Of a stretch of DNA of 64,000 nucleotides, positions 3,830-22,014 are shown piece after piece; position 1 is the stretch's first letter; every line of letters starts with the position of its first letter. The notes beneath the pieces are model-generated. The model searched no databases. It was given only the letters and a program-made list of their open reading frames with translations, and was not told the DNA's origin. Made by a program: the position numbers and the translations under genes. Source of the DNA: Candidatus Latescibacterota bacterium (GTDB lineage Bacteria > Latescibacterota > UBA2968 > UBA8231); contig CBDCDC010000002.1 in NCBI GenBank assembly GCA_965215195.1, positions 352,001-416,000 of the forward strand. The letters run 5' to 3'.

Positions 3830-3835
3830 TCATAT

Positions 3836-4083
3836 TCACCACGCAAAAAGTGCGCCCACTTCCATCGTCAACTCTCGGCCCGGATCGCCGTCCTCGCGCA
3901 CCACGAGTTGACCGTCGGTGTATCCGACATCGGCGACGCCGGAAAAATCGGAGGGAATCTGCATGAGAAAGTTGGCGTAGGTAAAAACCTGGGTCTCGTC
4001 GGCGTCGATATATTGAAAGAGCGAGCGGCCGAAAATCCGGCCTTTTTCCAACAACACCGGGCTAGGTTGGGGTAAGCCCGTAG
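3836..4083 (-). repeat. Diverged duplicate of the 3' end of gene 20844..21953
   Basis: About 250 bp align with 20844-21091 (GLPQPSPVLLEKGRIFGRSLFQYIDADETQ...MEVGALFAW* vs GLHQPSPVLLEKGRIFGRTLFHYIDADETQ...MEVGELFAW*). Confidence 0.92.
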
Positions 4084-4094: not shown

Positions 4095-4160
4095 CCACGC
4101 CCTGCGGCCGCCACTGGCTGAGTGGATCGTCAAAGGGAAGGTCGCACGGGAGGAGGGGGC
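4095..4160 (+). repeat. Diverged duplicate of the SDR 3' end (2141-2210)
   Basis: ccacgccctgcggccgccactggctgagtggatcgtcaaagggaaggtcgcacgggaggaggg vs ccacgccctgtggccgccgctggccgagtgggtcgtcaaggggaaagtggcgcgggaggaaggg. Changes are mostly at third codon positions. Confidence 0.88.
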
Positions 4161-6917
4161 CTACGAACGTTCGACGCGGAGCTGGTCGCCCAGTTCGAGA
4201 TCGTCGAGAATCTGCTGCAATTCAGTTTCCATGTTGTGGGCAAACTGCGAGCGGACGCTCACAGTACATTCAATACCGACGTTAAGCTCTTCCCCGGAGC
4301 GCAGCTTGGGCAGCATCTTGGTTCCCAGCCGGTTCCAGACTTCGGGAGGTACGGTGCCGGTAAGCCGCAGCGTTGTCTTTTGATTGTCCTCGCTCGGTGT
4401 GGGCTCTGGCTGGGGTGCTAACTCTGGGCTCGGCGCGGGTTCCGGTGGCGTCTGTGGCGAATGTTTAGCTGCGGCTTTGAGTTCTCTAACTTTGGCTTTG
4501 GTCACCAAGAAGACATTCTCCTCAAACGCCACTTCCTCGGCTGCGACCGACTCTTTATACCACAGCCGATTAAAGCCGCCATCGTCCTTGGCACCCGAGG
4601 CTAGACCAAACTCTCCCTTCGCCACGAACTCAACGACCTTCTGACGCAGGACCGCATCGGGATTGAGCAGCCGCGTCAATGCGCCGTTCAGAAAGCTCTG
4701 GCGCAGACTCGTGAGCGGCCACGCGCCGGAGTCTTTGAACGCCGCGGGCCAGTGGCGGTCGATGTAGCCGGCCCCCACGTTCTCGTTGAGCAGGGCCTCG
4801 GCCTTCAAAGCACTAATGATCCGTCCGCAGAGGGTTTCGCTTGCGCTGGCGTGGCCGGCCCCGAGGTCAATGACCTTGAGCCGATGCTCTTCCTGATTGT
4901 CCGCAAGTGCCACGAACCGATAGCCGGCCCACACTTCGTCCTTAGCCGCTTCCTCCGCGTCCCGAACATGGGTCTGAATTTCGGCGCGGTCGGCGCGGTC
5001 GTACTCTGAGCCGAGGACGCCCTCGGTTACTTCTTGGGCCACGCGCTTCCAAGCGAGCCACAACTCCACCTTATCGCGCAGTTCTCGTCCTAATTTCCTC
5101 GCACACCAGACCAGTGAACCCGGGTACAGCCGTGGCGCAGTGCCTCGTTCCTGCGTCCAATGGCCAATGCGCTCGACCACTTGGTTGCCGTTTATCCATT
5201 CCTCATCGGGGTCGAGGACGATCAGAGTGAGGCGCGGCGAATCTTGGACCGTGGCGCTGTCTTGCGGGAAGAACGTTATCGGCAGGGTCGCACCGCGTTT
5301 GAATTCCTCCTCGACCAGCTTGCGGATCGCCGGCTTGATCTCTGTAGTCTCGTCGAGCGAAGCCCGTCGGTCACTGACGACCTTGCGCAGTGTCGCTTGA
5401 TGGTAGATGCGATAGCCGTCCGTGCCGACCTTGCGGATAAAGAACCCCGACCCTTCGAGAGCTGTCGCTGCGCTGTCAATAGTCGTAGTCTCGACCTCGG
5501 GCTCGCCGAGCGCAAAGCGCAATTCCGGCAGATGGGCCACCTTTTCTACCTGTCCGCCGGAGGACTCGAATAGGATGGCCGTGCCCACGCGGCGGTGGAT
5601 GTCGCGCAGTGCTCCCGTGGCATCCGCGTCGAGAGGTCTGGCATGTGCCATCGGCCCGGCGAGGTCGGCGTCAATTGCCACATCGAGCCGCGACTCGCCC
5701 AACTGGCCCAAGACCACAGCGCGAAACTCGGGCACGTCCAACGGCGCCGACCCCAGCGTAATCAGCGGCTCGGTTCGCGCCTTTGTAAACTGCTCGCGCA
5801 CGGCCCAGGAAATCCATTGCGCCAGCATGGCCAGCGCACCTCGGGTTTGCTGAAACTGAGAAAGCGCACGCCACTTGCGCTGAAAGACCGAAAGAGTTGC
5901 CGGATGAAAGGGATAGCACACCTCGAATCGGCCGCGCAAAAATTCCCTTGCCTTGGCCTCCGTCGTCGCGGTATCGACTGCTAACCACTCGGCGGGCAAG
6001 CGAGCAGTGCGTTCAAAGCACCAGTCCGCGTAGGTCTTGGCGACGCGCTTGCGAGTGCGCTCGTTGCCGAGGTCCTCAAACAGCCGCCGGCGCACCACCT
6101 CGCTGATTTCGGATTCGTCATTGGCAATTAGATCGCGGGCAACGCGACGTACCACCTTGGTGATCCGGTCCTGCCACTGCTGATCCCAATCGGTCATTTC
6201 GACTTGGCTGCGCGGCAGGCTAATGAGTGCGGCAGCCTGAGTAGTGCCCGTGACGGCGACGGTCAGGTTTTGGAGGAAGGCGTGGAAGGGCTCGGCCATG
6301 GGGCGATGGCGATTGACAAAGTTCAGGACTTCATCGAACAACAGCAGCACGGGCGCATCCGCGGCAGCGAATACGTTGGCCAGTGCCTCGGTTCCCGGCG
6401 GCGTGGTCCGTGCGGCAGCACCGAGTGCCGCGACGCCCTTATCGCCCGCTAGTTGGTGCGCCAGATCGAGCCAAGGCGTTTCCCGGCCCTCCGCAGGGTC
6501 CCAAGCATTGCCCACGAAGACGCCGACTCGGGCAGGCGGAGCTTCTGCCATGCCGGCCTCGTTCAGGAGGTCTGCCACGCCGGGGAACTTGGCGGCATCC
6601 GCGCCGGCGTTGGCGATATGGTACAGCGAAGCCAGCGTATGCGTCTTGCCGCCACCAAATTGGGTGACGAGTGTGAGAACCGGAGCTGTGTTCTCGGTCT
6701 TGCCGGAGAGACGCCGGAGGACCATGCCAGCGTGTTCCTTTAGGGCGCGGGTGAAGCAGGTGCGCGAAAAAAATTGCGCTGGATCGCGGTAATCCACGGG
6801 GGCGGTTTGGGCTACGATCTGCTCAAGGGCAATGGCGAACTCGTCCGGGCTGAACGAGCGGCCTTCGCGCACTTCTTTGCGGAGCGTTACGGTTTTGTAC
6901 CAAGGGTCAAGGGCCAT
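4161..6917 (-). CDS. DUF499 AAA+ ATPase (BrxC-related)
   Basis: MALDPWYKTVTLRKEVREG start, Walker A QFGGGKTH, Walker B LLFDE, YPFHP and FQQTRG motifs. Confidence 0.88.
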   Translation of the reverse strand: MALDPWYKTVTLRKEVREGRSFSPDEFAIALEQIVAQTAPVDYRDPAQFFSRTCFTRALKEHAGMVLRRLSGKTENTAPVLTLVTQFGGGKTHTLASLYHIANAGADAAKFPGVADLLNEAGMAEAPPARVGVFVGNAWDPAEGRETPWLDLAHQLAGDKGVAALGAAARTTPPGTEALANVFAAADAPVLLLFDEVLNFVNRHRPMAEPFHAFLQNLTVAVTGTTQAAALISLPRSQVEMTDWDQQWQDRITKVVRRVARDLIANDESEISEVVRRRLFEDLGNERTRKRVAKTYADWCFERTARLPAEWLAVDTATTEAKAREFLRGRFEVCYPFHPATLSVFQRKWRALSQFQQTRGALAMLAQWISWAVREQFTKARTEPLITLGSAPLDVPEFRAVVLGQLGESRLDVAIDADLAGPMAHARPLDADATGALRDIHRRVGTAILFESSGGQVEKVAHLPELRFALGEPEVETTTIDSAATALEGSGFFIRKVGTDGYRIYHQATLRKVVSDRRASLDETTEIKPAIRKLVEEEFKRGATLPITFFPQDSATVQDSPRLTLIVLDPDEEWINGNQVVERIGHWTQERGTAPRLYPGSLVWCARKLGRELRDKVELWLAWKRVAQEVTEGVLGSEYDRADRAEIQTHVRDAEEAAKDEVWAGYRFVALADNQEEHRLKVIDLGAGHASASETLCGRIISALKAEALLNENVGAGYIDRHWPAAFKDSGAWPLTSLRQSFLNGALTRLLNPDAVLRQKVVEFVAKGEFGLASGAKDDGGFNRLWYKESVAAEEVAFEENVFLVTKAKVRELKAAAKHSPQTPPEPAPSPELAPQPEPTPSEDNQKTTLRLTGTVPPEVWNRLGTKMLPKLRSGEELNVGIECTVSVRSQFAHNMETELQQILDDLELGDQLRVERS

Positions 6918-6960
6918 TCTGTCTCTCTCTTTGATCGGGTCTCTGCGCGGTGGTTCAATC

Positions 6961-7587
6961 TCAACTCCCCAGCGACTCCAAGCTCGTTACCCAGCCGTTG
7001 AACCGAGGGCATTCATTGCGAATCTTGGCCAAGCCAATCTCCACTGCTAGAAGGGGGGCGTCAACTTTCTTATCGTACCGGGGTATAATCTCCTTGATCC
7101 GTTTGCTCGGAGCCGTGTCCTTGTTGTCGTTAATGTCCTCGGGCGTCTGGAACTGTGAACGGATGTTTTGCAGGGCCTCCACCGATCCGTCCGGTGCGCT
7201 AACCAGGCCCGCAAAAACGCTTACATCCGAAAACAACAGCCCCTCGAACTCATGTCGTTGGACATATGGGAACACTCTTTTTGGATGCCATAGACCGCCG
7301 AGTTTCTGGCGAAGGTCTTCCTCCAACTCATCGCTTGTTCTGCCTTCTTTGCGACGAAACCCATAGAAGTCAACGAGCGATGTCACCGCATCAAAGGAAC
7401 GGAGTAAATGGGTCATTTCCGACACGAGTCGCTCCACCGAAACATTTCCGCCGTCAGATCTGCCGCGGGCGCGGCCAAACAGAATCGGTATCGGTTCGAC
7501 TCCTCTTTCTCTTAAGTGAGCCGCGAGAAAATGTTTGACAAATTCCTCTTCGGTTGGGCCTTCTACCGATATGGCCAGTCGGATCAC
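6961..7587 (-). CDS. DUF4276 family protein (TOPRIM-like putative nuclease)
   Basis: VEGPTEEEFV, LVDFYG, HEFEGLLFSD, PEDIND..TAPSKRI and IRNECPRF motifs. GTG start overlaps the upstream ATPase stop. Confidence 0.85.
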   Translation of the reverse strand: MIRLAISVEGPTEEEFVKHFLAAHLRERGVEPIPILFGRARGRSDGGNVSVERLVSEMTHLLRSFDAVTSLVDFYGFRRKEGRTSDELEEDLRQKLGGLWHPKRVFPYVQRHEFEGLLFSDVSVFAGLVSAPDGSVEALQNIRSQFQTPEDINDNKDTAPSKRIKEIIPRYDKKVDAPLLAVEIGLAKIRNECPRFNGWVTSLESLGS

Positions 7588-8699
7588 GGACGTCCTCCGA
7601 GCAGATTCTTTTGCCAAAGCTCACCCGATGTGAAGTTGTCGTCGAGCCATACCTGATAGTCATCCGGCGCCAGTTTGCGAAACTCAGTACGACCGTCCTG
7701 TAGCTCTAACACGAAAATTTCGTCGAGACCGAACGCATCAACCAGCAAGGGCGATTGCGTTGCCACAATGACCTGCCTTTCCTCGGCGAGGGACTTTATC
7801 ATACCCCCAATCAAGGCGATGGCTGCCGGATGCAGGCCCAGTTCTGGTTCGTCCAACAGGATTACGTTGGGCAACATCTCCGGCGGCAGATTGAGCAGAG
7901 TGACGAGGGCGAAGAACCGTAGCGAGCCATCGGACGTGAGATGTGCGCCAAAGGTCTTGTCCATTCCTTTGGCTTTCCACCTCAGCAATACTTTTCCGTA
8001 GCTCTCTTCAAGCTGAAAACGGTCGAATACAGGCAAGACTCGGCTGATATGCTGGCAGATCAGATCATATCGCTTGATGTCTTCCCGCTCCAACCGGTGC
8101 AGTACGGCGGCCAAGTTGCCCCCGTGGCTAAGAAGGCAGTTGTTGTCCTCCGCGTCCCATCTTTTTTTGAAGTCAGATGTGTCGGATGTGTCGTGAAATT
8201 GATAGACAACGCAACTGCGGAGACGATCCACAATCACCTTGGCGGTGATGAGGTCGTTAGCATAAAATTCGCTGGGCTTTGTGACCCGGACAATCTCGGC
8301 TTCCTGATGCCCACTTCCCAAGTATTGCCAATTGCTACTGAATCGAAAACTTTCCTTGCTAAAGAAAAAGCGGTCAGGATGAGCGTGGGAAAGCATGAAC
8401 CGATAGTCGTAGCTGCTGTGGCCCGCTCCGATTCTCAACCTAACCTCGGCTTCCATGCGCGGAGTACGTTGGTTGCCACCATACAATTGATCGTCGGCTC
8501 CTCCGTGCCTCTCGATGAACTCTGCGAGTCTGCGAGACCCGAGCATCCAGTTCAGCATTTCAAAGAATCGAATGAAATTCGACTTGCCCGAGCCGTTGGC
8601 ACCAATTAGGACCGCCGCCTTGGGAATTCCCGAAAGCTCGACATCGGCCAACGACCGGAAGCCCTGGATGCGGACGTATTCAATCATTGTTGGTTCCAT
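7584..8699 (-). CDS. AAA_21/AbiEii-like ABC ATPase
   Basis: IQGFRSL, Walker A GANGSGKSN, signature SDGSLRF, Walker B LLDEPELGLHP and ATQS. Confidence 0.88.
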   Translation of the reverse strand: MEPTMIEYVRIQGFRSLADVELSGIPKAAVLIGANGSGKSNFIRFFEMLNWMLGSRRLAEFIERHGGADDQLYGGNQRTPRMEAEVRLRIGAGHSSYDYRFMLSHAHPDRFFFSKESFRFSSNWQYLGSGHQEAEIVRVTKPSEFYANDLITAKVIVDRLRSCVVYQFHDTSDTSDFKKRWDAEDNNCLLSHGGNLAAVLHRLEREDIKRYDLICQHISRVLPVFDRFQLEESYGKVLLRWKAKGMDKTFGAHLTSDGSLRFFALVTLLNLPPEMLPNVILLDEPELGLHPAAIALIGGMIKSLAEERQVIVATQSPLLVDAFGLDEIFVLELQDGRTEFRKLAPDDYQVWLDDNFTSGELWQKNLLGGRP

Positions 8700-8709
8700 C
8701 GCGTTCCTT

Positions 8710-11688
8710 TCACCTCGGCACCGCCAACAGCATGGCGTCGAGCAGGCGTTTTTCGTTGCAGCCTTGAGGGTAGAGTGCCGATAGCGCGTTGGCAAGGCGC
8801 AGGAAGTCGGGGCCGCGATCTTGCTCGGCGTTGATCAGCGTCCGCAGTGCGTTGGCGTGGCCGCTGGACTGGAGCAGCATGGCGGTGTGGACGCGGTCGA
8901 GGGTGGTGCCGTCGGAAGTTGCGGCGAGGTGTTCGTCGGAGGTTTCGCCGTATCGCGGGCGCGGCTCCCGCACGAGAGCGGGTGCGCCGTCCTGCCAGTC
9001 GGGGAAGAGCGTCTGCTGCGCGTTGGTGCCCGGGTCGCTTTCGATGTAGGTGGCAGCGGCCGTAGCGCCCTCCTCGCCGAAGAGCTTTTTGGCCCGCTCG
9101 GCTACGGGTAGTAGGCGCACGACGCCCTTTGCTTGGCCGATGATGCGGTCGGTCCAAGTACCGAGGTCAATGCCCATGGGCTGGGCGAAGCGGCGCACCA
9201 CGTCGAAGGGGAGCGCAAATCCCGTGGCCGCGACCTTGGCGACGGCTTCTTCGTCGGCCTCGTCGTCTCGTTCCCCTGCGTTCGCAAGGGCAGGACTCTG
9301 ATTTTCTGCAACAAGGGTTGTGCTCTGGAGCGTCCACAGGAAGAGTGCGGTCAGGCGGGCGTCCTCTTCCAACGCGCCGGAAAGGCCGTTGTGCGCTCGC
9401 GCCTCGGCCGTGCCGAGTACCTGTTGCAGGGCGGCGCGGCCGACGACCTCCCAGACTTTCTCCAGATAATCGGGCAGGCCGATTATATTGCCCTCGGCGG
9501 TTTCGACAGCGCGGTAACGGCTGAAAATTTCGAGCGCCGGGCCGATGCAGGCGAAGACCAGATCGGCACCGCGGATGCCTTCGCCCTGCAAACGCTCGAT
9601 CCAGTCGGCGACGCGGACCGGCAGTTCGCGGAGGACATCGGCCCAGTCGCCGATGGGGGCGTCCTCGGGACGGGGGCGGCAGATGAGGTGGATGCTAGTG
9701 GCGAGTGCGGCGGAGTCGCGGGCGCGCAGGCGGGTCTCGCTCTCCGTGGCGATTGGCCAAGAGCCGGTGATAGTCCAGCCGCCGCGAATCATGCCGGAGA
9801 GTAGCGCCTCCCAGCCCTCTGTCGTCTTGTGAGCGAAGACGACGGAGCCGACACCTTCTTCGCTTAGAATCCGGCGTCCCTCGGCGAAGGCTTTCGCCAT
9901 TGTTTCCTCGAACCACTCTCGGTCCTTGGGTCGGCCGTCGACCTGCTTGGTCTCGTCCTGTACGGCCTCGGCTGTCTTGGGCGAGAGCGGGTTGTCTGGA
10001 TCGAACGGGTCGCGCAGCAACGGGTTATCAGGTAGCGTACGCTTGAGCCAGACTAGGAAAAAGTCGGATAGATCGGAATAGGGTATTGCGTCGTAGTAGG
10101 GTGGATCGGTGAACCAGATGCCGGCGGACTGGTCGGGAAGGGGGTGGTCGGTGGCGTTGGCGGGCTGGACTTGGCCTCCCGCCACGACTCGTACAGCGTC
10201 TATGACCTTACATGCTGCGGTGATCCCCGACAGAAAAACTCCCCGCGCATTGCTTTTTGGCGCTGATTCACAGAAATCCCACACTACAGGAATGGCTTGG
10301 CGTGCAAATAGATTCACAGGATTTTCAGCACCGCTTTCCCATCTGGCAAGTGAATTATTCCCATCCGACATTCTGCCTAAGAGCAATGCGATTAGGGTCT
10401 GTTGAATGCTTGGCGTAAGCGTTACCGTTGATCGCCCCAACCCCACCATCGCCACCTTCTGCCGCGCCGTAAACAAATCGCCCCACTGCATCATCCCGTA
10501 CCGCTGCACACGGAAGCCCAACGTTCCAATCGGTGGCAACAGCTCGTCCGGCACCGGGCAAAGCCCCTGTTTCCCGCTCCTTTCCCATTCCTCCAGAACC
10601 TGCGCCACCCGTTCCTGAGCCTTTCGCACCGCTGCGTAGTCCGCGTCGTTGGGCAGCCGATAGTGCCGCCCTGTTTCATTAGGGCGCAACGTCACCACCG
10701 CCGTCATTCGCGCCCCGCCCATCCGCCGCCCGTCCGCGTCGAAAATCACATCCGCCCCGCCCCGCTCGGCCGCAAGCTGCGCCCGCACCCGCTCCGGCGG
10801 CAGGACCGCGCCGCAGCACAAACAAGTCGCCCGCGCCCGCGCCACCGTGCCGCCGCGCACCTCTCTATCCGCCTGCGGCTCAAACACCTCAAACTCGACG
10901 CTCGGTGGCTCCCCCGCGCAGCACTCGACGCGATGCCGCAACGCCCGCTTGCGCTTGGCCTTCTTGCACAGATAAAACGACCGCATCAGCGGAATCTCCG
11001 CGCCGCAGTTGGGCGCTTCGCAACGCACTGTCCGCGCCCACAAATAGGCAATTGGCGTGGCCCCGTCCGGGTCCTTGGGATACAGAGTGGCCAACTCCTG
11101 CTCGGCCTGCCGCTTAATCTCGCCGCCGACCCGGCGCAGTTCCTCGGCCAACCCCGGCCCGTGCCGCGGAATATCCTCCAGCATCACCTTGAGAATCAGG
11201 CACGCCACCGGATTCAGATCACTGGCGAACGCCTCGCAGCCCAGCCGTAGCGCCTCCAGCGGAATCGAGCCTCCGCCCGCAAACGGATCCACCACGAGCG
11301 GCGGCTCCTCGCCATGCGCCGCCTTCACCAAAGCCCGGCTCACGTCGAGGTGGGTGCGATCCGCAGCATTTTTCCAGTTGGCGAAGTTGGCAATGAACGA
11401 CAGCAACCCCTGTCGCAGTTCCGCGTCATTCGCCGGCGGCTGACGCACCTCGCGCAGAATCTCGCGCGCTTGCTGCTTAAACTCCTCCGGGCAGTGCGGG
11501 TCGCACGGGTCCGGCAGCAGCAACGCCAGCAACACGGCCCGCGACGAGGCCAAAGGCCGCCGCGCCCACCACAGGTGCAGCGTACTCGGATGCCCGTGCC
11601 GAATCGACTTCTCCCGCGCCGCGTGCGTGGACACTTGGGCGATGGGGAAATCGACTTCGGCGAGACGCTTGCATTCGCGGGGGATCAC
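8710..11688 (-). CDS. DUF1156 adenine-specific DNA methyltransferase
   Basis: LHLWWARRPLA (DUF1156), DPFAGGGSIP SAM-binding motif, Cys-rich Zn finger, catalytic TDPPYY. True start is probably the GTG at 11688. Confidence 0.9.
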   Translation of the reverse strand: MIPRECKRLAEVDFPIAQVSTHAAREKSIRHGHPSTLHLWWARRPLASSRAVLLALLLPDPCDPHCPEEFKQQAREILREVRQPPANDAELRQGLLSFIANFANWKNAADRTHLDVSRALVKAAHGEEPPLVVDPFAGGGSIPLEALRLGCEAFASDLNPVACLILKVMLEDIPRHGPGLAEELRRVGGEIKRQAEQELATLYPKDPDGATPIAYLWARTVRCEAPNCGAEIPLMRSFYLCKKAKRKRALRHRVECCAGEPPSVEFEVFEPQADREVRGGTVARARATCLCCGAVLPPERVRAQLAAERGGADVIFDADGRRMGGARMTAVVTLRPNETGRHYRLPNDADYAAVRKAQERVAQVLEEWERSGKQGLCPVPDELLPPIGTLGFRVQRYGMMQWGDLFTARQKVAMVGLGRSTVTLTPSIQQTLIALLLGRMSDGNNSLARWESGAENPVNLFARQAIPVVWDFCESAPKSNARGVFLSGITAACKVIDAVRVVAGGQVQPANATDHPLPDQSAGIWFTDPPYYDAIPYSDLSDFFLVWLKRTLPDNPLLRDPFDPDNPLSPKTAEAVQDETKQVDGRPKDREWFEETMAKAFAEGRRILSEEGVGSVVFAHKTTEGWEALLSGMIRGGWTITGSWPIATESETRLRARDSAALATSIHLICRPRPEDAPIGDWADVLRELPVRVADWIERLQGEGIRGADLVFACIGPALEIFSRYRAVETAEGNIIGLPDYLEKVWEVVGRAALQQVLGTAEARAHNGLSGALEEDARLTALFLWTLQSTTLVAENQSPALANAGERDDEADEEAVAKVAATGFALPFDVVRRFAQPMGIDLGTWTDRIIGQAKGVVRLLPVAERAKKLFGEEGATAAATYIESDPGTNAQQTLFPDWQDGAPALVREPRPRYGETSDEHLAATSDGTTLDRVHTAMLLQSSGHANALRTLINAEQDRGPDFLRLANALSALYPQGCNEKRLLDAMLLAVPR

Positions 11689-11755
11689 AGGCACTCCTCC
11701 GTCCATTGGACGAGCGCTTTGGCGGTGTCGATCGCTTCCCGGTATTCCTGCTCGT
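11685..11755 (-). pseudogene. HEPN C-terminal stub
   Basis: EQEYREAIDTAKALVQWTEECL* matches the end of HEPN 16332..16724 (EQEYAEAVETAEAVLRWVEEHL*). Its stop overlaps the DUF1156 GTG. Confidence 0.8.
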
Positions 11756-11835
11756 ATTCCGAAGTGTGGATCTTGGAACTCCAAGGAATCCAGTACCCCA
11801 ATGCGATTGCTTTTTCTTTATCGTGTCGTGCATAT

Positions 11836-14142
11836 CTACGAGGTGCCATGGTCATGTTCTTTCAAATAGAGGATGTCGCACCGGACCTCCAACCGCTTCC
11901 GCTCGCCCGTCTCCGGCTGGAAATCGTTCGCGATTTCATGCGGGATCGGAATGAATGTGCGATCTTTCGCGAGAATAGTCGAGGTGACCCTAGGACCACC
12001 TCCGGACGCGGCACTAACAAGTCCAGGACAAAGGATGTCGTAGTAAAGGCCGAAACGCCTTGAGTGATGCTGGAATATGAATATGACCTTTCGGCCACCC
12101 CAGACCACTTCTGTTGAATGCGGCTGTAGGAAGAAGTCACCCTTCTCGCGTTGAACTAGGTCACTTAACGAGAGAAAACAAGTATATCCGTTAACCGGTT
12201 CCTCACTCGTTAGAATACGTGCATTCGTCTCCTGCTCCCGGCGGTCAATTCCGGGTCTAGCGTCAAAGAAGTCTTGAGGGTCTCCTTCAGTAGTCTCTTC
12301 TCTGATCTCATTGACAACCGAGGAAAGTGGTTCCGTGCTCGCACCGCTCACATCTACGACTGAGCGATCCCTATCGATCAGTCGTCGTGCCGCCTCGACA
12401 TTCGTTAGTCGTCCGGTACGCAGTTCCTCGAAAATCTCATCGAGATCGGCCTTGTCATCGAACTCATATTCAAACAATTCTCTGTTTGAACGAAGATGCC
12501 TTAAGAATGCCTCGGCTCCCTCCCGTGTGCTGCTAGGTACGAGCTTCGCAATTCTTGGGAAGATCGTAGATCGAACGAAGTCTTTTACGAAGGGCGCGAA
12601 CGCGTTGTAGTTATCGCGATAAAGAGCGAGCAACGGCGCGACGCTAGAAGAATCCGGGTCGAGGTAGATCCTCACTGGCACTTTCTTATCAGTTACGAGG
12701 AGGGGTAGTCCACCAGAGATTGTCCCGAAACGGATGTCGACTCCAAGGAAGTAGTCCTCTTCAAGGATTAGGGCGACCCGAGTTGCGAGAGCAGAATGAG
12801 CGAAACTCTGACTCGTTATCGGGAGCTCTTGTTTCACCCGAGGGGTAATATCAACCTCGTTGACTCCTTGCTTGATTAAGTAGCCCAACTCGCAGTCACG
12901 CCGAGGTCTCCGTCGGGAAAGCACAATAAGCGGTTCATCCTCGCTGGCGTATGTCTGGATTACTGATTCATTATGCCCACTGTAGTACCGTACACCACTG
13001 CGCTTTACTAGCGAAGCGAGTACCTCGGGTTTGCCGGAAGGTCGGGGTACTACCTCTAGCTTGCCGCAGAGTGCGAACTGTCCTGTTGCAGTGATCCATT
13101 GGAGAAAACCATCGTTGGCGAAGGATTCGTCGTGCTCGGCTGCAATTGGCGAAATCAGGTTGTCTAGTGCCCAGATAATTCGCTGCAGCAGTTGATTTGA
13201 AGAAGCGTCTAGGGCTTCACGGCCTGCTGTGGGCTTCAGGATGGAGAGATCAACCACGCCGCCCCACTGGTACCCGGACTGCATTGCGACTGTCGAAAGA
13301 CCGAATCCAGAACGAAGTGTACGAATGCCGTTGCGGCCTTGTAGTAGGACCATCGAACCGGGTTTTCCAAGCCTTGGTGCGGACTTGATGTTCTCTAGAA
13401 CAACGCGCAGTTCACCCGACGCCATGCCAATAAGTTCTATATCGCCGGAGAGAATTCCGTCAAGCGATATGTCTCGGCAGTGTTCCAACCAAGCATGTCT
13501 TTCGGAAGGAAGCACTGCTCTGTGGTTCGCGCCACTGAGCTTGTCGCCGTTGAAAAGGACGGGTACGTCGACGAACTCGACAAACTCACGGAGATACGTA
13601 CGTGCGTCCTGAACGGATACCCCGCTCATAGGGGCGAGGTGAGCTCGCACCGTGGTTCCTGGCTTGCCTTTTTGAGTAATTGGCGTGACCGAGATGCCCG
13701 CGGTTTCGGTCGACAGTTCCGACTTCCGTACCGACGACAACGTACGTTCGCCTGTGACTGCTGACTCACTCTCAACGGAAAGTTCATCAGCGACGCCGAA
13801 ATTTGCCATCGCCCCTATGCCGAACGTCCCTACCACACCAGCCGCCCGAGCAGAGTCGGTGTTCTTACCGCTTTTCCCTGCATACCAGAAGTGAGTTTCG
13901 ATCTCTTGGGCCGTCATGCCGATACCGTTGTCGGATACGATGATCTGTTCGTCATCAACGGTCACATGAATCATGGGTTCAAATTTTCCGCCAAGCGCCT
14001 GTCTCATGCGCACTGCGTCGAATGCGTTTTGCGTGTTCTCTCGAAGAAGAGCGAGTGGCGACTGGTAAATCTGATCGGCAAGCAATTCAAGTATCCGGGA
14101 GAATTCGACTTTGAACGCGATTCTCTTCTCAGTTGAGCTCAT
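11836..14142 (-). CDS. Hsp90-like (GHKL) ATPase with an unrecognised C-terminal region
   Basis: FKVEFSRILELLADQIYQSPLALLRENTQNAFDA, DNGIGMT, GTFGIG and GTTV motifs. The C-terminal ~550 aa do not resemble HtpG. Confidence 0.8.
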   Translation of the reverse strand: MSSTEKRIAFKVEFSRILELLADQIYQSPLALLRENTQNAFDAVRMRQALGGKFEPMIHVTVDDEQIIVSDNGIGMTAQEIETHFWYAGKSGKNTDSARAAGVVGTFGIGAMANFGVADELSVESESAVTGERTLSSVRKSELSTETAGISVTPITQKGKPGTTVRAHLAPMSGVSVQDARTYLREFVEFVDVPVLFNGDKLSGANHRAVLPSERHAWLEHCRDISLDGILSGDIELIGMASGELRVVLENIKSAPRLGKPGSMVLLQGRNGIRTLRSGFGLSTVAMQSGYQWGGVVDLSILKPTAGREALDASSNQLLQRIIWALDNLISPIAAEHDESFANDGFLQWITATGQFALCGKLEVVPRPSGKPEVLASLVKRSGVRYYSGHNESVIQTYASEDEPLIVLSRRRPRRDCELGYLIKQGVNEVDITPRVKQELPITSQSFAHSALATRVALILEEDYFLGVDIRFGTISGGLPLLVTDKKVPVRIYLDPDSSSVAPLLALYRDNYNAFAPFVKDFVRSTIFPRIAKLVPSSTREGAEAFLRHLRSNRELFEYEFDDKADLDEIFEELRTGRLTNVEAARRLIDRDRSVVDVSGASTEPLSSVVNEIREETTEGDPQDFFDARPGIDRREQETNARILTSEEPVNGYTCFLSLSDLVQREKGDFFLQPHSTEVVWGGRKVIFIFQHHSRRFGLYYDILCPGLVSAASGGGPRVTSTILAKDRTFIPIPHEIANDFQPETGERKRLEVRCDILYLKEHDHGTS

Positions 14143-15563
14143 GAGGTCATCCTTCTAACGGTGATGGTGGCAGCCAACTCCTCAAAGAGGGCGCGATTAA
14201 CGAATGCCGACGCGGCGTTAAGGCGTACCGCAGCTTCGTCGAATCGACCACCGTCTAGGAGCAGCGAGATGACCCTAACAACCTCGTCCACGCTTTGGGG
14301 TGGGTCGAGAAGTTCGATCAATTCCTCCTGTCGTCCCAAACCGTCCAACGCCCGGATCTTGATCTGGCGTTTTTCATGTGAGTGGGACGTGTTAATCTCA
14401 GCGAGAAGTTCCAATGCTCTCTCGTATTGTTCGGTGGCTACCGCCGTCATCGCGTTATCGAGTCGTTGAGTGGGGGTAGGTGGTTTAGGACGTGAAGGCG
14501 AAAGCGGGAGGTTTAGCTTGATGAAGGTTTTACCGCCGAAGTCGTCCCGATGGGAGCCGGTGAAGACGCCCCCTGATGACATCGCTCGTACATGAACGGT
14601 GATTGAGTTACTGTTCGGATCGATGACGACGATGTTGAATTGGCGTCGCTCTCCCGTGGGGAGTTCATGGTCGCCCACTGCAATTGAGCCGGCACCTACG
14701 ACCGCCATTGAGGTCAGGTTCGGCAGACGAAGTTCAAACGGCGCTGCACCAGGATAATGCTGATGTCCGTGTAGCCCGACGCTGAATCCGAAATCGATAA
14801 GTTTGTGGATGACACGTTGGTCCATATAATCGTTTGCTCGTGGTCCGCCGACAACGCTATGGTGCCACACGGCGACGGCAACCGGGGCATTCGAGCCCGC
14901 AAGTAGTTCCCGCGATGAGGCCAGCGATACCGAGTCGATCTCTCCCACGTGGCAAAAGCAGTCGTTCCCGTGCCAAGAGGCGAATCCGACAATAACGAGC
15001 CCGAGAGACGGATACTCGACAAAAACGAGGTCATCATCTCTATGCGACAATGGACTTGGGTCTAACCCTGCATAGAAGTCTGCTTGAAACTGTCGGAAGT
15101 GTTTGAAGCGAGATTCATACAGATTACTGTCACTGATCTCGTAGGATTTCTGCTCCTTCCAGTTCCAGCGCACGTTTGAACTGGCCTCAAAGGCCTTGCT
15201 AGCGATCCCTTCTGGACAGGTTGCGAGAGGCTCCATCGCGTTTCGGGCGCGACCCCAGTCAACATCGTGGTTTCCAGGGATGATGACGACGCGCGATCGA
15301 TCAGAATCAACAAACTCGGCTGCCAGATATCGTAAGAAATCGCAGGCTTCAGAGTATTGGGCTGCGATCTCGGAGTCGGGATCGGTAGTGCCGATACTTA
15401 CGCCCTGAACTAGGTCGCCGCTCACCACGACTAGGTCTGGACTCGGAATCCCCTCTCCGCTCCACCGCGTTGCATCGCTGGTGATTGCCGCGAGAAGCTC
15501 ATCGTTGCTTAAACGAGGCCCCGACGTTCGGTGTAGGTCAGAGATGTGAAGGAGAGTAGGCAT
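14139..15563 (-). CDS. Calcineurin-like metallophosphoesterase with a helical/TPR-like C-terminus
   Basis: HISDLH, SGDLV, PGNHD, WHH and LHGHQH motifs. ATGA overlap with the downstream Hsp90-like gene. Confidence 0.85.
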   Translation of the reverse strand: MPTLLHISDLHRTSGPRLSNDELLAAITSDATRWSGEGIPSPDLVVVSGDLVQGVSIGTTDPDSEIAAQYSEACDFLRYLAAEFVDSDRSRVVIIPGNHDVDWGRARNAMEPLATCPEGIASKAFEASSNVRWNWKEQKSYEISDSNLYESRFKHFRQFQADFYAGLDPSPLSHRDDDLVFVEYPSLGLVIVGFASWHGNDCFCHVGEIDSVSLASSRELLAGSNAPVAVAVWHHSVVGGPRANDYMDQRVIHKLIDFGFSVGLHGHQHYPGAAPFELRLPNLTSMAVVGAGSIAVGDHELPTGERRQFNIVVIDPNSNSITVHVRAMSSGGVFTGSHRDDFGGKTFIKLNLPLSPSRPKPPTPTQRLDNAMTAVATEQYERALELLAEINTSHSHEKRQIKIRALDGLGRQEELIELLDPPQSVDEVVRVISLLLDGGRFDEAAVRLNAASAFVNRALFEELAATITVRRMTS

Positions 15564-15617
15564 TAATTACTCCTCGCAGGGATTCCGCGTGTAAGCAGAT
15601 GATCAATCCGGTTTTGG

Positions 15618-15678
15618 TCTCTACGATGCGCTGGATGATGTCGTCCGACGTTTGTTGGTCCAGCATCCTCTTTTTCAC
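15618..15678 (-). pseudogene. MNT 5' stub (third copy)
   Basis: VKKRMLDQQTSDDIIQRIVE matches the starts of both intact MNTs and has the same ctaggagagaagcc RBS region as MNT copy 2. Confidence 0.8.
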
Positions 15679-15715
15679 GGCTTCTCTCCTAGTGCTTGCT
15701 CAGCGCCTCCCGCGT

Positions 15716-15804
15716 GCGGTCGATTTCTGCCGCGCTACGTACCGCGACATTTGGGCGATGGGAGAATCGACTTCGGCGAGACGCTTGCAGGCGCGGGGGA
15801 TCAC
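15716..15804 (-). pseudogene. DUF1156 5' stub
   Basis: VIPRACKRLAEVDSPIAQMSRYVARQKS vs intact VIPRECKRLAEVDFPIAQVSTHAAREKS. Confidence 0.85.
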
Positions 15805-15917
15805 AGTATGCGTTCCTCAGCCCAGCGGATGACGGCTTCGGCGGTCTCTATCGCTTCAGCGTACTCCTGTTCGGAAACCGGGCTGGCGGTGAAAGGATAG
15901 CGTTCAGGCAGTTTCAT
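15801..15917 (-). pseudogene. Internally deleted HEPN gene
   Basis: MKLPE-RYPFTASPVSEQEYAEAIETAEAVIRWAEERIL*: the start and end of HEPN joined in frame at a CGCT microhomology. Confidence 0.85.
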
Positions 15918-16230
15918 ACACCACCCGTCCTTCCCGCAAAGCGGGCTTGACGACCAGCGCGTGGCTGTTCTTGTAACGCTCTACATATTCAGGGGAGACC
16001 ACAATTGCATCCACAGCCGCCCCGGCACCGCGCATGTTCCGGTATATTCGCTTCGTGACGTCGGTCGCGTTTTCTCCTGCCTTGACGATGAGCAGATCGA
16101 CGTCGCTGTGGGGCCCCATTTCGCCGCGGGCGGCAGAGCCGAACAGGATGATCTTTTCCGGCTGAGCGACCTCTACGATACGCCGGATGATGTCGTCCAA
16201 CGTTTGTTGGTCCAGCATCGTCTTTTTCAT
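15904..16230 (-). CDS. Minimal nucleotidyltransferase (MNT) antitoxin, copy 2
   Basis: ILFGSAARGEMGPHSDVDLLIV. ATG at 16230 follows an aggagag RBS. Confidence 0.88.
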   Translation of the reverse strand: MKKTMLDQQTLDDIIRRIVEVAQPEKIILFGSAARGEMGPHSDVDLLIVKAGENATDVTKRIYRNMRGAGAAVDAIVVSPEYVERYKNSHALVVKPALREGRVVYETA

Positions 16231-16267
16231 GGCTTCTCTCCTAGGGTTGCTCCGCGTTTGTGGTATG

Positions 16268-16335
16268 CGGTCGATTTCTGCCGCCCCCGCAGTTTTATCG
16301 ACTGCGGCGAGACGCTGGCATTCGCGGGGGATCAC
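16268..16335 (-). pseudogene. DUF1156 5' stub
   Basis: VIPRECQRLAAVD directly follows the HEPN stop with a GTGA overlap, the same junction as at 11688. Confidence 0.75.
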
Positions 16336-16724
16336 AGGTGCTCCTCGACCCAGCGAAGGACGGCTTCGGCGGTCTCTACCGCTTCAGCGTACTCCTGTTC
16401 GGAAACGGGCCTGCTGGGATTGGGATAGCGCGTGGTTATCGCGTAACGCGTAAGTCTCGAAGCACGGCGAACCGCGTCCGGAATGCACTCTTCACTTCCT
16501 GCAAGGATTGCCAGTAAATGGGCTAAATCATGCACGTACGGAAACTTGATGTCATGCGAGATCATCGCGGCTTTGATGGCCTTCTCCGCGGCCTGCTGGG
16601 CCGCGAAACACAAGTCTTCGAGGTAGGCGTTGGGGACGCGATTCTTCGCGATTGCCAGACTGCTTCTGGCGCGGTTCAACCACTCCCGCGGATCGTCGGG
16701 CGGGAAGCGCTCAGTCAGTTTCAT
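16332..16724 (-). CDS. HEPN domain protein (toxin of the MNT-HEPN pair)
   Basis: LCFAAQQAAEKAIKA, YVHDLAHL and YAITTRYP motifs. Confidence 0.88.
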   Translation of the reverse strand: MKLTERFPPDDPREWLNRARSSLAIAKNRVPNAYLEDLCFAAQQAAEKAIKAAMISHDIKFPYVHDLAHLLAILAGSEECIPDAVRRASRLTRYAITTRYPNPSRPVSEQEYAEAVETAEAVLRWVEEHL

Positions 16725-17037
16725 ACACGACCCTCCCCTCGCGCAGTGCCGGCTTGATGACTAGCGCGTGGCTGTTCTTGTAACGCTCTACGTCACTGGG
16801 AGTCACCACGATCGCGTCAACCGCGGAGCCGACGCCATACAGCTTGTCATAAATCTGCCCCATGAGGTCAAGCGCGTCCGCCCCTTCCTTGACGACGAGC
16901 AGATCGACGTCGCTGTGGGGTCCCATTTCGCCGCGGGCGGCCGACCCGAACAGGATGATTTTCTCCGGTTGAGCAACCTCTACGATGCGCCCGATGATGT
17001 CGTCCAATGTTTGTTGGTCCAGCACCCTCTTTTTCAT
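16711..17037 (-). CDS. Minimal nucleotidyltransferase (MNT) antitoxin, copy 1
   Basis: ILFGSAARGEMGPHSDVDLLVV; overlaps the HEPN start. Confidence 0.88.
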   Translation of the reverse strand: MKKRVLDQQTLDDIIGRIVEVAQPEKIILFGSAARGEMGPHSDVDLLVVKEGADALDLMGQIYDKLYGVGSAVDAIVVTPSDVERYKNSHALVIKPALREGRVVYETD

Positions 17038-17118
17038 GACTTCTCTTTCCGTTCCTGCCGAGGCGGGATGGCGCTGGCACGGCTGAGCCTTCGGTCCGGC
17101 GTCACCAGTGGCCAGAGC

Positions 17119-17328
17119 TTATCCGCGCTTCAGTTCGGCCGGATGCATGCTGAGGTATTCTCGGACCTCCAACTGCATTCGGTCGATCTCGGCGAGAAAT
17201 CCCGATACCGAGCCCCGGTAATTTTCAGGATGGGTTTCCATATTGTGCAGATGGGCTATTTGACGTTGGAAATGCGCGATTCGTCCAAGGGTGACGTCGA
17301 GTTCGCGATCGTTTGCAATCATGATCAT
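17119..17328 (-). CDS. Small helical hypothetical protein (possible antitoxin-like partner)
   Basis: 69-aa ORF MIANDRELDVTLGRIAHFQRQIAHL...FLAEIDRMQLEVREYL, coupled to an upstream mini-ORF. Confidence 0.6.
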   Translation of the reverse strand: MIMIANDRELDVTLGRIAHFQRQIAHLHNMETHPENYRGSVSGFLAEIDRMQLEVREYLSMHPAELKRG

Positions 17329-17405
17329 CCCACCGTGATTTCGACGATGCCACGTTCAGTGCCATCGCGTTTGAGCTTGTCGGCTTTGAGTATTGACTTT
17401 TTCAT
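17325..17405 (-). pseudogene. 26-aa remnant ORF, probably an internally deleted gene
   Basis: MKKSILKADKLKRDGTERGIVEITVG*, joined by ATGA overlaps to both the helicase and the 69-aa gene. Confidence 0.45.
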
Positions 17406-21953: not shown

Positions 21954-22014
21954 TATAGGTACTCCTTCTGTGAAGTGAGGGGATGGCAAAAGAGACGCAA
22001 CAACGTACTAGAAA

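Follow-up and report, generated by a model that had tools for sequence, protein, structure and literature searches.

Repeated hmaB gene starts in a cargo slot of an Hma anti-phage operon: probable scars of additive, homology-anchored recombination

The start of the methyltransferase gene hmaB occurs four times in an Hma locus of a Candidatus Latescibacterota bacterium. Judging from sequence comparisons, we consider these repeated starts to be probably the scars of additive, homology-anchored recombination, to which local duplication and deletion would have contributed. The window, that is, the whole stretch of DNA analysed here, comprises 64,000 nt (GCA_965215195.1, contig CBDCDC010000002.1, positions 352,001–416,000, forward strand). 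We compared it with 62 related Hma loci, designated L001 and so on, and counted the window additionally where stated. The locus is a known Hma defence operon, also called the DUF499-centred BREX-related system (PADLOC), and it seems likely that the region under study is its cargo slot 1, between hmaA and hmaB.

Architecture of the Hma locus

We take HmaA to be a helicase-nuclease, HmaB a methylase and HmaC an ATPase (Table 1). HmaA carries the Pfam domains SNF2-rel_dom, Helicase_C and NOV_C, and its gene is the upstream anchor for slot 1. The intact hmaB likely starts with the GTG at 11688, and its middle (nt 1100–1750) is hypervariable. The PADLOC match of HEC-01A begins at residue 33 of an ORF called from 8795. 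All slot-1 cassettes, namely the pairs of nucleotidyltransferase (MNT) and HEPN genes, the phosphoesterase–ATPase pair and, in a second copy of the locus, AlbA_2, lie on the operon's strand. Stop and start codons overlap between MNT1 and HEPN1, between each HEPN frame and the next hmaB start, between the phosphoesterase and ATPase genes, and between hmaA and the small ORFs. A promoter scan gave 1 site (2.4 expected) and a terminator scan gave 6 (5.3 expected). The cassettes would be co-transcribed, and the cargo presumably functions in defence.

Table 1 Features of the Hma locus in the window (D numbers denote repeats)
Feature	Coordinates	Strand	Description
hmaA	17402..20854	-	SNF2 helicase, C-terminal NOV_C nuclease-like domain; PADLOC HmaA E=1.2e-171
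Two-ORF small cassette	17119..17405	-	26 aa + 69 aa, overlapping ATGA junctions
MNT1	16711..17037	-	Minimal nucleotidyltransferase, intact, unit 1; Pfam Polbeta, NTP_transf_2
HEPN1	16332..16724	-	Intact; Pfam HEPN E=1.7e-28
hmaB 5′ stub 1	16297..16335	-	39 nt; in frame with MNT2; D3
Linker, units 1/2	16231..16296	-	3′ tail of lost gene X + MNT leader; D17
MNT2	15904..16230	-	Nucleotidyltransferase, intact, diverged, unit 2; Pfam
HEPN2	15801..15917	-	Remnant, 38 codons, internal deletion; D5
hmaB 5′ stub 2	15728..15804	-	About 77 nt; reads ..QMSRY..; D4
Linker, units 2/3	15679..15727	-	Second copy of gene X tail + MNT leader
MNT3 start stub	15619..15678	-	60 nt, 20 codons; D6
Metallophosphoesterase (cargo)	14139..15563	-	Calcineurin-like; Pfam Metallophos
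Hsp90/GHKL-type ATPase (cargo partner)	11836..14142	-	Pfam HATPase_c_3
HEPN3 3′ tail	11685..11783	-	D5; stop overlaps real hmaB start
hmaB	8710..11688	-	DUF1156 N6-adenine methyltransferase, intact; PADLOC HmaB E=4.3e-114; Pfam DUF1156
HEC-01A	7584..8699	-	ABC/AAA_21 ATPase, cargo slot 2; PADLOC HEC-01A E=6e-115
HEC-01B	6961..7617	-	DUF4276 (TOPRIM-like) partner; PADLOC HEC-01B E=2.7e-63; Pfam DUF4276
hmaC	4161..6917	-	DUF499 ATPase; PADLOC HmaC E=2.4e-95
SDR 3′-end duplicate	4095..4158	.	D9, 86%; flanking SDR gene 1182-2207, +
DUF4432 3′-end stub	3835..4083	-	Copy A left flank; D2, 249 nt, 90% to 20843-21091
hmaA 3′ stub, copy A	3788..3828	-	D16, 95%
AlbA_2/HATPase_c_4 protein	2510..3748	-	Pfam; sole intact gene of copy A
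hmaB 5′ stub, copy A	2353..2513	-	..KMSRY..; internal deletion; D4, D10, D11
HEC-01B 5′ stub, copy A	2267-2350	-	D8, 85%
hmaC internal fragment, copy A	2219-2264	-	D15, 96%

Repeated hmaB starts and the units of slot 1

The original prediction placed hmaB starts at 16335, 15804, 11688 and 2513 and arranged slot 1 into three units of the form MNT-HEPN-hmaB start; ORFs, Pfam matches and repeats bear out both, with all four starts on the minus strand. A 39-nt hmaB-start core, searched for with at most 3 mismatches, matched four times in the window (2475–2513 and 11650–11688 with none, 15766–15804 and 16297–16335 with two each), against a mean of 0.00 over 100 shuffles. Three of the starts, the GTG codons at 16335, 15804 and 11688, share bases with the TGA that closes a HEPN frame (CTGTGA); the fourth, at 2513, comes after the end of AlbA_2. 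Where intact hmaB reads QVSTH, the stub at 15804 has QMSRY and that at 2513 has KMSRY, again as predicted.

Unit 1 consists of an intact MNT1 and HEPN1, sharing 14 nt, and of stub 1, which the HEPN1 stop overlaps. Unit 2 combines an intact, diverged MNT2 with stub 2 and with a HEPN2 shrunk by an internal deletion, which joins at a short repeat (CGCT..CC). In unit 3, the 60-nt start of an MNT gene is followed by the metallophosphoesterase, the Hsp90-like ATPase, a HEPN tail and the intact hmaB. This phosphoesterase–ATPase cassette, together with the HEPN tail and the hmaB start, is shared with L015 as one 4104-nt block (89%), in which the two proteins are 88% and 87% identical, respectively. 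The phosphoesterase matches the NCBIfam 'anti-phage phosphoesterase' weakly, far under the cutoff; the ATPase is also under the cutoff of the NCBIfam HSP90 family, and its PDB matches are HtpG/TRAP1 N-domains. The small two-ORF cassette next to hmaA recurs in L002 and L024 with 90–91% identity over 342 nt, adjoining hmaB there and not, as in the window, MNT; its 69-aa ORF has no match in Pfam, PADLOC or NCBIfam.

The sequence beyond stubs 1 and 2 is not methylase but the 3′ tail of X, a small gene that sits upstream of MNT in relatives (L010 9051–9299). The linker between units 1 and 2 is homologous to L010 9180–9299 and L008 7690–7790, and that between units 2 and 3 meets its stub at another position. 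The same gene X tail in both linkers fits unit duplication better than two independent arrivals, although the joins differ.

The hmaB stub at 2513, linked to AlbA_2, is accounted for by a collapsed second copy of the whole Hma locus (copy A, 2204–4158), and the SDR 3′-end duplicate is the boundary of the two tandem copies. In L007 and L008, hmaA is followed by an AlbA_2 to which that of copy A is 93–94% identical. The HEC-01B stub of copy A is closer to L010 (90.5%) than to the resident HEC-01B (84.5%), and its DUF4432 stub is equally close to the gene of L005 (90.7%) and to the resident gene (90.4%).

Slot variation and stubs in related loci

Slot 1 is highly variable among the relatives, not invariant: it holds many unrelated cargo families, and its length ranges from −1 to 9916 nt among the 45 loci with both ends located. 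Stubs of hma genes similar to those of the window, 26–263 nt long, occur in 14 of the 62 related loci and in neither of two isolate-derived Planktothrix plasmid Hma loci. Across the relatives and the window, 30 of 38 stub events lie no more than 300 nt from a slot-facing end of a gene (hmaB 5′, 15; hmaB 3′, 7; hmaC 5′, 4; hmaA 3′, 4), and the others are internal (7) or at an outer end (1). The 300-nt stretches at these ends amount to about 13% of the length of the hma genes (binomial p = 5e-20, for events that are not independent). For every type of stub-bearing cassette there is another genome in which it adjoins an intact hmaB (AlbA_2 in L041, HEPN in nine loci, YhcG in five and unk435 in L011).

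Recombination at the stubs

The stubs at 15804 and 2513 had been predicted to derive from other alleles. Across the loci, nine stubs have a length of 78 nt or more. Seven of them are nearer to the 5′ end of an intact hmaB from a different genome than to that of their own, among them both of the window stubs tested and a reciprocal pair in L001 and L010; the other two (L008, L026) are nearest their own hmaB. The allele test hinges on a few nucleotides per stub.

The proposal that the hmaB start serves as a recombination anchor is supported by a comparison of L008 with L007, which are 96.8% identical up to a 26-nt stub and 83.3% identical after it, with alignments that overlap solely inside the stub. 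The hmaB start behaves here as a junction for recombination: ancestry switches exactly within this shared stub. The MNT-HEPN block between the two stubs of L007 is missing from this position in L008, and an identical stub-to-YhcG join comes after HEPN in L001 and L007 and after AlbA_2 in L008. Elsewhere in L008, a 173-nt stub meets the MNT leader at the microhomology TTGCTGCT, and in the window the transition from stub 2 to the gene X tail falls in an imperfectly matching patch of about 25 nt. Comparison of the window with L015 revealed no clean crossover inside hmaB, identity being about 90% on either side of the hypervariable middle.

Alternative origins of the array

Could the array have arisen without repeated capture? 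One MNT-HEPN-hmaB arrangement, including the first 80–100 nt of hmaB, might have been duplicated in tandem and expanded to three units by unequal crossing-over, with later insertion of the phosphoesterase and ATPase genes and decay. The MNT tree pairs MNT1 with MNT2 as sisters (support 90/85, under the star threshold) and places the L002 and L024 tandem pairs, along with L010, in a single five-row clade of unresolved branching; local duplication or gene conversion thus contributed. Since the gene X tail with MNT leader also recurs at both unit junctions (D6/D17), the units may stem partly from local duplication and unequal crossing-over instead of three separate captures, and the 5′ thirds of MNT1 and MNT2 are 91% identical. 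As a complete history, however, we regard this as unlikely. MNT1 and MNT2 are 79% identical in both protein and DNA, and their dN/dS of 0.17 at a dS of 0.78 indicates units under selection, not products of neutral decay; dS in their middle third reaches saturation (2.2), and this third resembles the differing alleles of other genomes. The two stub-to-X joins differ in position in both partners, and the resident hmaB is a poorer match for stub 2 (84.6%) than are the hmaB of L008 and L012 and the copy-A stub (87%). Local duplication also leaves unexplained the variable slot content and why 14 other loci carry stubs, which represent four kinds of gene end. Of the predicted repeated capture at one slot, the variable slot and the foreign alleles stand, whereas the sisterhood of MNT1 and MNT2 and their shared gene X tail may reflect local duplication in part.

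The stubs might also have been kept for a function, such as translational coupling through the stop/start overlap or mRNA context, an idea compatible with a recombinational origin. In every stub the start codon, ATG or GTG, still overlaps the stop that lies upstream, and stub 1 and MNT2 form a single 143-aa ORF. Most frames, however, are only a few codons long or carry a frameshift (L010 8581, L001 1121), and some stubs contain internal deletions, which makes such a role rather improbable.

There is very little likelihood that the 39-nt hmaB start is the att-like site of an unrecognised recombinase and the array a true integron analogue. The core is near-invariant across its four copies and also travels outside the slot, as in L019, where AlbA_2, a 37-nt stub and MNT-HEPN all lie downstream of hmaC; it is, however, merely the conserved DUF1156 N-terminus. 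The stubs vary in length from 26 to 263 nt, and the joins occur at varied positions and microhomologies with no single uniform cut point. As the original prediction held, attC-like inverted repeats are absent from the unit junctions; there was no Rfam match, and no integrase or resolvase domain was found in the 14 locus proteins scanned. Finally, a chimeric array stitched together from a metagenomic strain mixture is barely credible: the window and all 14 stub-bearing relatives are metagenome-assembled genomes, but the architecture recurs in many independent assemblies, including chromosome records of 4–7 Mb, the copies differ by 5–25% in ordered, in-frame gene contexts, and a protein search located the window's own hmaB on a 4.86 Mb contig.

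Discussion

Hma systems with Hma-embedded candidate (HEC) cargo have been described in a preprint, which counts 931 systems with embedded genes out of 1485 (Payne et al. 2024, 10.1101/2024.01.29.577857). Liu et al. (2024, PMC11232893) called Hma a 'defence gene insertion hotspot', with insertions in about 66.5% of systems, and Hma was later renamed the DUF499-centred BREX-related system (NAR 2026, PMC12839542). The window has the same three core genes in the same order and on the same strand, cargo in both the hmaA–hmaB and hmaB–hmaC gaps, and HEC-01A/B. Whereas cargo embedding is already published, the gene-end stubs and the insertion mechanism go undescribed in the main texts of both studies: a word search returned 0 occurrences of 'recombination', 'remnant', 'truncated' and 'hotspot' in that of Payne et al. 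and 0 of 'remnant' and 'duplicat' in that of Liu et al. The survey of Payne et al. admitted at most 3 embedded genes per gap and excluded repeated or pseudogenised hma loci, so that arrays like that of the window would be filtered out.

The MNT-HEPN pairs resemble MntA-HepT in having a small nucleotidyltransferase with a GS..RG...D.D motif, read from translations, and a downstream, overlapping HEPN-domain gene. They differ in that the HEPN domain is PF05168 with no Rx4-6H motif at a common position among the 19 homologues checked, and in that MNT1 scores only 35 bits against the NCBIfam MntA model (cutoff 60). A toxin-antitoxin role is on these grounds only putative.

The window shares with integrons (intI, attI, attC) an arrangement in which cassettes, most of them promoter-less, follow one another in order and in the same orientation within one slot, with a repeated element bounding each. 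It differs in having neither an integrase nor attC-type imperfect palindromes, in that the repeated element is a fragment of the neighbouring gene and varies in length, and in that its joins look like general plus illegitimate recombination. The integron-like array of the original prediction thus holds for the outcome but not for the manner of joining, and the prediction as a whole is partly supported.

By analogy, the closer model is sequential displacement through homology-facilitated illegitimate recombination, as put forward for Vibrio cholerae T6SS effector-immunity modules by Kirchberger et al. (2017, PMC5361080), who liken the T6SS array to an integron without an integrase and cite orphan Rhs/CDI toxin-immunity arrays. 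In both systems a conserved anchor gene stands beside a variable slot, modules would be added rather than swapped, with older ones retained and displaced, and alleles come from different lineages. Fragments of the replaced or constant gene remain, as does the displaced effector 3′ end in the T6SS example and as do strings of orphaned 3′ regions in Rhs. T6SS cargo, however, is interbacterial and that of the window presumably anti-phage. The window's anchor, the hmaB 5′ end, lies downstream, so that displacement would run upstream; four gene ends of one operon would act as anchors; and Hma would retain whole defence cassettes, not orphan immunity genes.

For additive, homology-anchored recombination we infer the following direction and order of events and route of DNA entry. 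A new cassette would enter the slot joined to its donor's hmaB start, with a homologous downstream crossover within hmaB. Its upstream end would be joined illegitimately, at a microhomology of a few bases, within the first 26–263 nt of the resident hmaB, so that the old hmaB start is left behind the older cassette, which would be displaced upstream. Repeats of this process, with unequal crossing-over between direct repeats and microhomology deletions, would yield a series of cassette-stub units. The same process may operate at the three further slot-facing gene ends (hmaA 3′, hmaB 3′ and hmaC 5′), and copy A would represent it at the scale of a whole locus, a second Hma allele having been stacked beside the first before its core genes were lost.

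Hma operon and embedded cargo

The locus in the window is an Hma, or DUF499-centred BREX-related, system, a defence system that has already been published and whose family was given the latter name more recently (NAR 2026, PMC12839542). HmaA (PADLOC E=1.2e-171, residues 11-1095) carries the Pfam domains SNF2-rel_dom, Helicase_C and, at its C-terminus, the nuclease-like NOV_C; HmaB is a DUF1156-type N6-adenine methyltransferase (PADLOC E=4.3e-114; Pfam DUF1156, 4.3e-23); and HmaC is a DUF499 ATPase (PADLOC E=2.4e-95, with which Pfam DUF499 agrees). The ORF map places the three genes on a single strand in the order A-B-C, which is kept in related loci, and all relevant genes in 1-22000 lie on the minus strand. 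Cargo occupies the gap between hmaA and hmaB (slot 1) and that between hmaB and hmaC (slot 2), the latter containing HEC-01A, an ABC/AAA_21 ATPase (PADLOC 6e-115), followed by HEC-01B, a DUF4276, TOPRIM-like protein (2.7e-63). NCBIfam gave no name to AlbA_2, the 69-aa ORF, gene X (a small gene upstream of MNT, the minimal nucleotidyltransferase gene, in relatives), unk435 or unk292, and its only hints for cargo, 'anti-phage phosphoesterase' and HSP90 family, were below threshold; for the MNT-HEPN, AlbA_2 and phosphoesterase/Hsp90-like cassettes, a role in defence is inferred from context only. The promoter and terminator scan of the slot gave counts no higher than those of shuffles and is therefore uninformative on operon structure.

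The longest ORF call for hmaB (8710-11784) begins at a TTG at 11784 and crosses the HEPN tail region in another frame, while the conserved start, common to all relatives, is the GTG at 11688. Compared with the related locus L015, hmaB nt 1100-1750 (window ~9940-10590) is hypervariable, with 29-70% identity between flanks of ~90%; with this part the methylase probably recognises its target.

Repeated hmaB starts delimit three units

The first 39 nt of hmaB occur four times in the window with at most two mismatches, and in none of 100 shuffled sequences (see table). Direct-repeat families and alignments resolve three units between hmaA and hmaB. Unit 1 consists of MNT1, HEPN1 and a 39-nt stub, that is, a cut-off hma gene end left behind a cargo cassette. 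Unit 2 consists of MNT2, a HEPN gene of which 38 codons are left and a stub of ~77 nt, and unit 3 of a 60-nt MNT start, a metallophosphoesterase gene, an Hsp90-like ATPase gene, a HEPN tail and the intact methylase gene. The original prediction of hmaB starts at these junctions and of a three-unit anatomy was thus confirmed by the repeat families, the alignments and the shuffle control, and its description of the stub alleles was accurate: where the intact gene has QVSTH, the stub at 15804 has QMSRY and that at 2513 KMSRY. The phosphoesterase-ATPase cassette, the HEPN tail and the hmaB start form a single block in common with L015 (4104 nt, 89%).

Upstream of MNT1, the segment 17034-17375, comprising most of a 26-aa ORF, a 69-aa ORF and a spacer, is 90-91% identical to 9663-10004 of L002 and 9669-10004 of L024, two related loci; in those loci its end coincides with the hmaB start codon, and in the window with the MNT1 start. 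A family search with the 69-aa ORF found none.

Features of the window: copies of the hmaB start and the second, collapsed Hma copy
Feature	Position	Remark
hmaB start, 39 nt	16297-16335	GTG overlaps TGA of HEPN frame at 16335
hmaB start, 39 nt	15766-15804	GTG overlaps TGA of HEPN frame at 15804
hmaB start, 39 nt	11650-11688	GTG overlaps TGA of HEPN frame at 11688
hmaB start, 39 nt	2475-2513	follows AlbA_2 gene
SDR flanking gene, 3'-end copy	4095-4158	first feature past hmaC (4161), reading down minus strand
DUF4432 flanking gene, 3'-end copy	3835-4083	249 nt, 90%
hmaA 3' stub	3788-3828	41 nt
AlbA_2 gene, intact	2510-3748	
hmaB 5' stub	2353-2513	
HEC-01B 5' stub	2267-2350	
hmaC fragment	2219-2264	
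SDR gene, intact	1182-2207	+ strand

Origin of the MNT-HEPN repeats

MNT and HEPN domains (Pfam) lie in adjacent genes that overlap by 14 nt. HEPN adjoins intact hmaB in nine loci of several phyla (tblastn with window proteins), which makes MNT-HEPN-hmaB a common and old linkage. In a regular-expression scan of 19 HEPN proteins (HEPN1, at window 16332-16724, together with its 18 homologues from the loci), the Rx4-6H motif was found in none of 15 and was scattered in the other four, including HEPN1, at a different position in each. As the motif is not conserved, the usual toxin-antitoxin reading (MntA-HepT type) may not apply to these MNT-paired proteins.

MNT1 and MNT2 differ with a dS of 0.78 and a dN/dS of 0.17; dS is 0.35 in the 5' third, and the middle third is saturated. 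Judged from these substitution patterns, the two genes are old, selected and mosaic, with neither a decaying recent copy, and the expectation that the units are not products of mere neutral decay was borne out. The MNT tree makes MNT1 the sister of MNT2 (90/85) and groups the tandem pairs of L002 and L024 with L010 in one unresolved clade. On these groupings, we think that duplication or unequal crossing-over of a unit already carrying a stub gave rise, at least in part, to the MNT-HEPN repeats, with later exchange of segments. Independent capture of MNT1 and MNT2 is unsupported by this tree. Repeated capture of cargo, as proposed originally, therefore survives in part: foreign-like stub alleles and variable slots speak for it, but the sister relationship of the two MNT genes does not.

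MNT codons 48-84 (window 16786-16896 and 15979-16089) form a hypervariable middle between conserved ends, of which a few types recur across genomes; MNT2 resembles L001, L009 and L012 here, and MNT1 resembles L055 and L039.

Slot content in related loci

An HmaB scan of genome contigs yielded 64 loci, of which 18 are titled Candidatus Latescibacterota. Ten of the loci (L001, L003, L004, L005, L007-L010, L024 and L034) have a chromosomal site in common, DUF4432 - Hma - SDR (tblastn); both flanking genes were found in six, SDR only in L001, L004 and L034, and DUF4432 only in L008. Among the 45 loci in which slot 1 could be delimited at both ends, it measures -1 to 9916 nt; slot 2, in 61 loci, measures 58 to 5886 nt. 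The 294 ORFs called in the slots fall into 151 clusters, and Pfam, run on 111 representatives, identified AlbA_2, MNT, HEPN, YhcG/DUF1016 nucleases, OLD-type ATPase-TOPRIM proteins, several AAA_21 ATPases with DUF4276 or PIN partners, ThsB-like TIR, SIR2-STAND, GmrSD, PRTase-CE, KAP NTPase, a kinase-ORC protein, DUF433/DUF5615 pairs and IS4/5 transposases. Given these sizes and this diversity, the slot is far from invariant across relatives, as the original prediction required. Beside these variable cassettes, the hmaB 5' end is a conserved anchor, with 73-94% DNA identity across phyla.

IS4/5-family transposase genes lie within the cargo slots of L008 (7906-8674) and L024 (13712-14527), and transposition therefore adds to slot content in some genomes. 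The gemmatimonadotal locus L056 has two near full-length hmaB genes in tandem (6377-9683 and 9906-13202; 88-90% identical).

Stubs derive mostly from slot-facing gene ends

Stubs were scored by comparing each locus with itself, an event being a piece of an intact hma gene that recurs outside that gene; L056, with its entire hmaB duplicated, and L063, a 30%-identity system of another arrangement, were left out. The comparison returned 38 events: 15 from the hmaB 5' end, seven from hmaB 3', four from hmaC 5', four from hmaA 3', one from an outer end and seven internal, two of which continue a 5' stub past a deletion. Slot-facing ends contribute 30 of the 38, with the four 300-nt windows making up ~13% of hma gene length (binomial p 5e-20, which is not a true probability because the events share ancestry). 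Stubs were borne by at least 14 of the 62 related loci, a lower bound because contig ends cut some loci; these were eight of 18 Latescibacterota and six of 44 others, all metagenome-assembled genomes. As an isolate control, plasmids were searched with HmaB by tblastn, which returned 126 records, none reaching 60% identity; the two compared, Planktothrix plasmid Hma loci, had no hma stubs.

In L009, an hmaC 5' stub upstream of a HEC-01 cassette matches the intact gene over 70 nt without a single difference (14901-14970 versus 16361-16430) and looks like the product of a very recent event.

A second Hma copy has collapsed beside the first

Downstream of hmaC, the window contains repeats of the core genes and of both flanking genes (see table); the entire locus, flanks included, is therefore present twice in tandem. 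One copy is complete, and in the other, at 2204-4158, AlbA_2 is the sole intact gene among gene-end fragments, those of hmaA, hmaB, HEC-01B and hmaC being 41-161 nt long. These fragments resemble the genes of other species at least as closely as the resident ones; the HEC-01B fragment, for example, is 90.5% identical to L010 and 84.5% to the resident gene.

Cargo (AlbA_2, MNT-HEPN, HEC-01) is also found downstream of hmaC in L019 (18427-20446), L021 (17841-18531) and L060 (17062-21263); in L019 stubs of the hmaB start lie with it, and in L060 fragments of hmaC. Like the window, these loci may each contain a collapsed second copy.

Stacked cassettes and their joins

Multi-cassette arrays in Latescibacterota reach nine ORF calls per slot. 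L007 reads hmaA, AlbA_2, a stub of 26 nt, RHH, MNT, HEPN, a stub of 28, YhcG, a stub (nt 34-112) fused to KTSC, OLD and hmaB; L008 reads hmaA, AlbA_2, a stub of 33, YhcG, IS, unk435, a stub of 173, MNT, HEPN and hmaB; the arrays of L001 and L010 resemble them. In all four, as in units 1-3 of the window, an old cassette has been kept together with a fragment of the anchor gene. Each stub-carrying cassette type adjoins intact hmaB elsewhere (AlbA_2 in L041, HEPN in nine loci, YhcG in five, unk435 in L011), an arrangement expected if the cassettes had once been next to hmaB and were later pushed upstream.

A few joins were inspected by eye for microhomology. The 173-nt stub of L008 is joined to the MNT leader through 8 nt of microhomology (TTGCTGCT). 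Stubs 1 and 2 of the window are each followed by the 3' tail of gene X, which lies upstream of MNT in L010 and L008; stub 2 joins it at an imperfect homology of ~25 nt and stub 1 further upstream, so the two joins differ. The deletion in HEPN2 lies between two copies of a short repeat, and the AlbA_2-linked stubs of L001 and L010 have in common a deletion between two 9-nt hmaB repeats.

Among stubs of at least 78 nt, seven of nine are nearer to another genome's intact hmaB 5' end, with their own gene ranking third to tenth, and two are nearest their own, the differences amounting to few nucleotides. The stubs of L001 and L010 are reciprocal, each being closest to the other's gene. Identity between L007 and L008 is 96.8% from the hmaA end through AlbA_2 to the stub, and 83.3% over the next stretch, which starts in the stub and takes in YhcG; the 26-nt stub is all that these alignments share, and the inter-stub RHH-MNT-HEPN block of L007 is absent there in L008. 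In this pair, a switch of ancestry and a difference in cassettes are placed exactly at a stub. Within hmaB, no clean crossover was seen between the window and L015, identity being ~90% on both sides of the hypervariable middle.

Discussion

The best-fitting model is additive insertion: a cassette would be anchored by homology in an hma gene end, the insertion would be closed by an illegitimate join near that anchor, and recombination and deletion would then follow between the resulting direct repeats. Homology-facilitated illegitimate recombination has been proposed for the effector-immunity arrays of type VI secretion systems (T6SS) by Kirchberger et al. 2017 (PMC5361080), who note their likeness to an integrase-less integron. 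Common to those sequential-displacement arrays and the Hma arrays are the proposed mechanism, a conserved anchor, the retention of old cassettes with anchor fragments, and microhomology at joins.

It is also possible, if rather unlikely, that the stubs (hmaB start, hmaA 3', hmaB 3', hmaC 5') go beyond being scars and serve as working portable homology arms, by which operons gain, lose and reorder cassettes integrase-free. Any two stubs could then loop out the cassette between them, and RecA-type recombination could return the circle, or a fragment taken up by transformation, to the operon at hmaB or any of the stubs. If so, the L007/L008 pair would be one event caught happening, and the multi-cassette arrays of Latescibacterota would be the product.

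An integron, with IntI beside the array and attC-bounded cassettes, is not what the scanned regions contain: Pfam found no IntI-type tyrosine recombinase domain in the 14 proteins of 2049-21989; a general inverted-repeat search of 11600-17450 gave three weak repeats, none at a unit junction; an Rfam scan of 1500-21500 had no match at E up to 1; and join positions vary. The original comparison to an integron array lacking attC sites and integrase was right about what is missing, and the likeness holds for the outcome only. As a whole, that earlier reading is confirmed in its description and supported in part in its interpretation; the system is a known one.

Both the system and its cargo embedding are known. 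Payne et al. (preprint, 10.1101/2024.01.29.577857) count 931 of 1485 Hma systems with embedded genes, and 376 distinct cassettes; they offer a genomic-sink idea, leave the cause of embedding as something that 'remains to be explored', and found HEC-01 not protective in their assays. Liu et al. 2024 (PMC11232893) describe the hma region as an insertion hotspot, with insertions in ~66.5% of systems, and show phage protection for a Halomonas HmaA. By word search, the main texts of both mention no remnants, duplications or recombination mechanism, and in the literature searched we found no prior description of stubs or of an insertion mechanism in embedded defence systems, nor any earlier account of gene-end stubs as a record of cassette stacking, of which they are possibly also a tool.

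Defence genes are known to nest within Hma, BREX, DISARM and type I restriction operons, with their route of entry left open. Stubs record this process legibly: from them one can read which end of a gene was the anchor and at what point the illegitimate join fell, and they suggest in what order the cassettes came in. Should the pattern prove general, stubs could help to locate cassette boundaries automatically, to date acquisitions and to recover multi-cassette arrays that current pipelines discard because of 'duplicate' or 'pseudogene' hma hits; it would also tie the turnover of defence genes to the mechanism proposed for toxin-immunity arrays.
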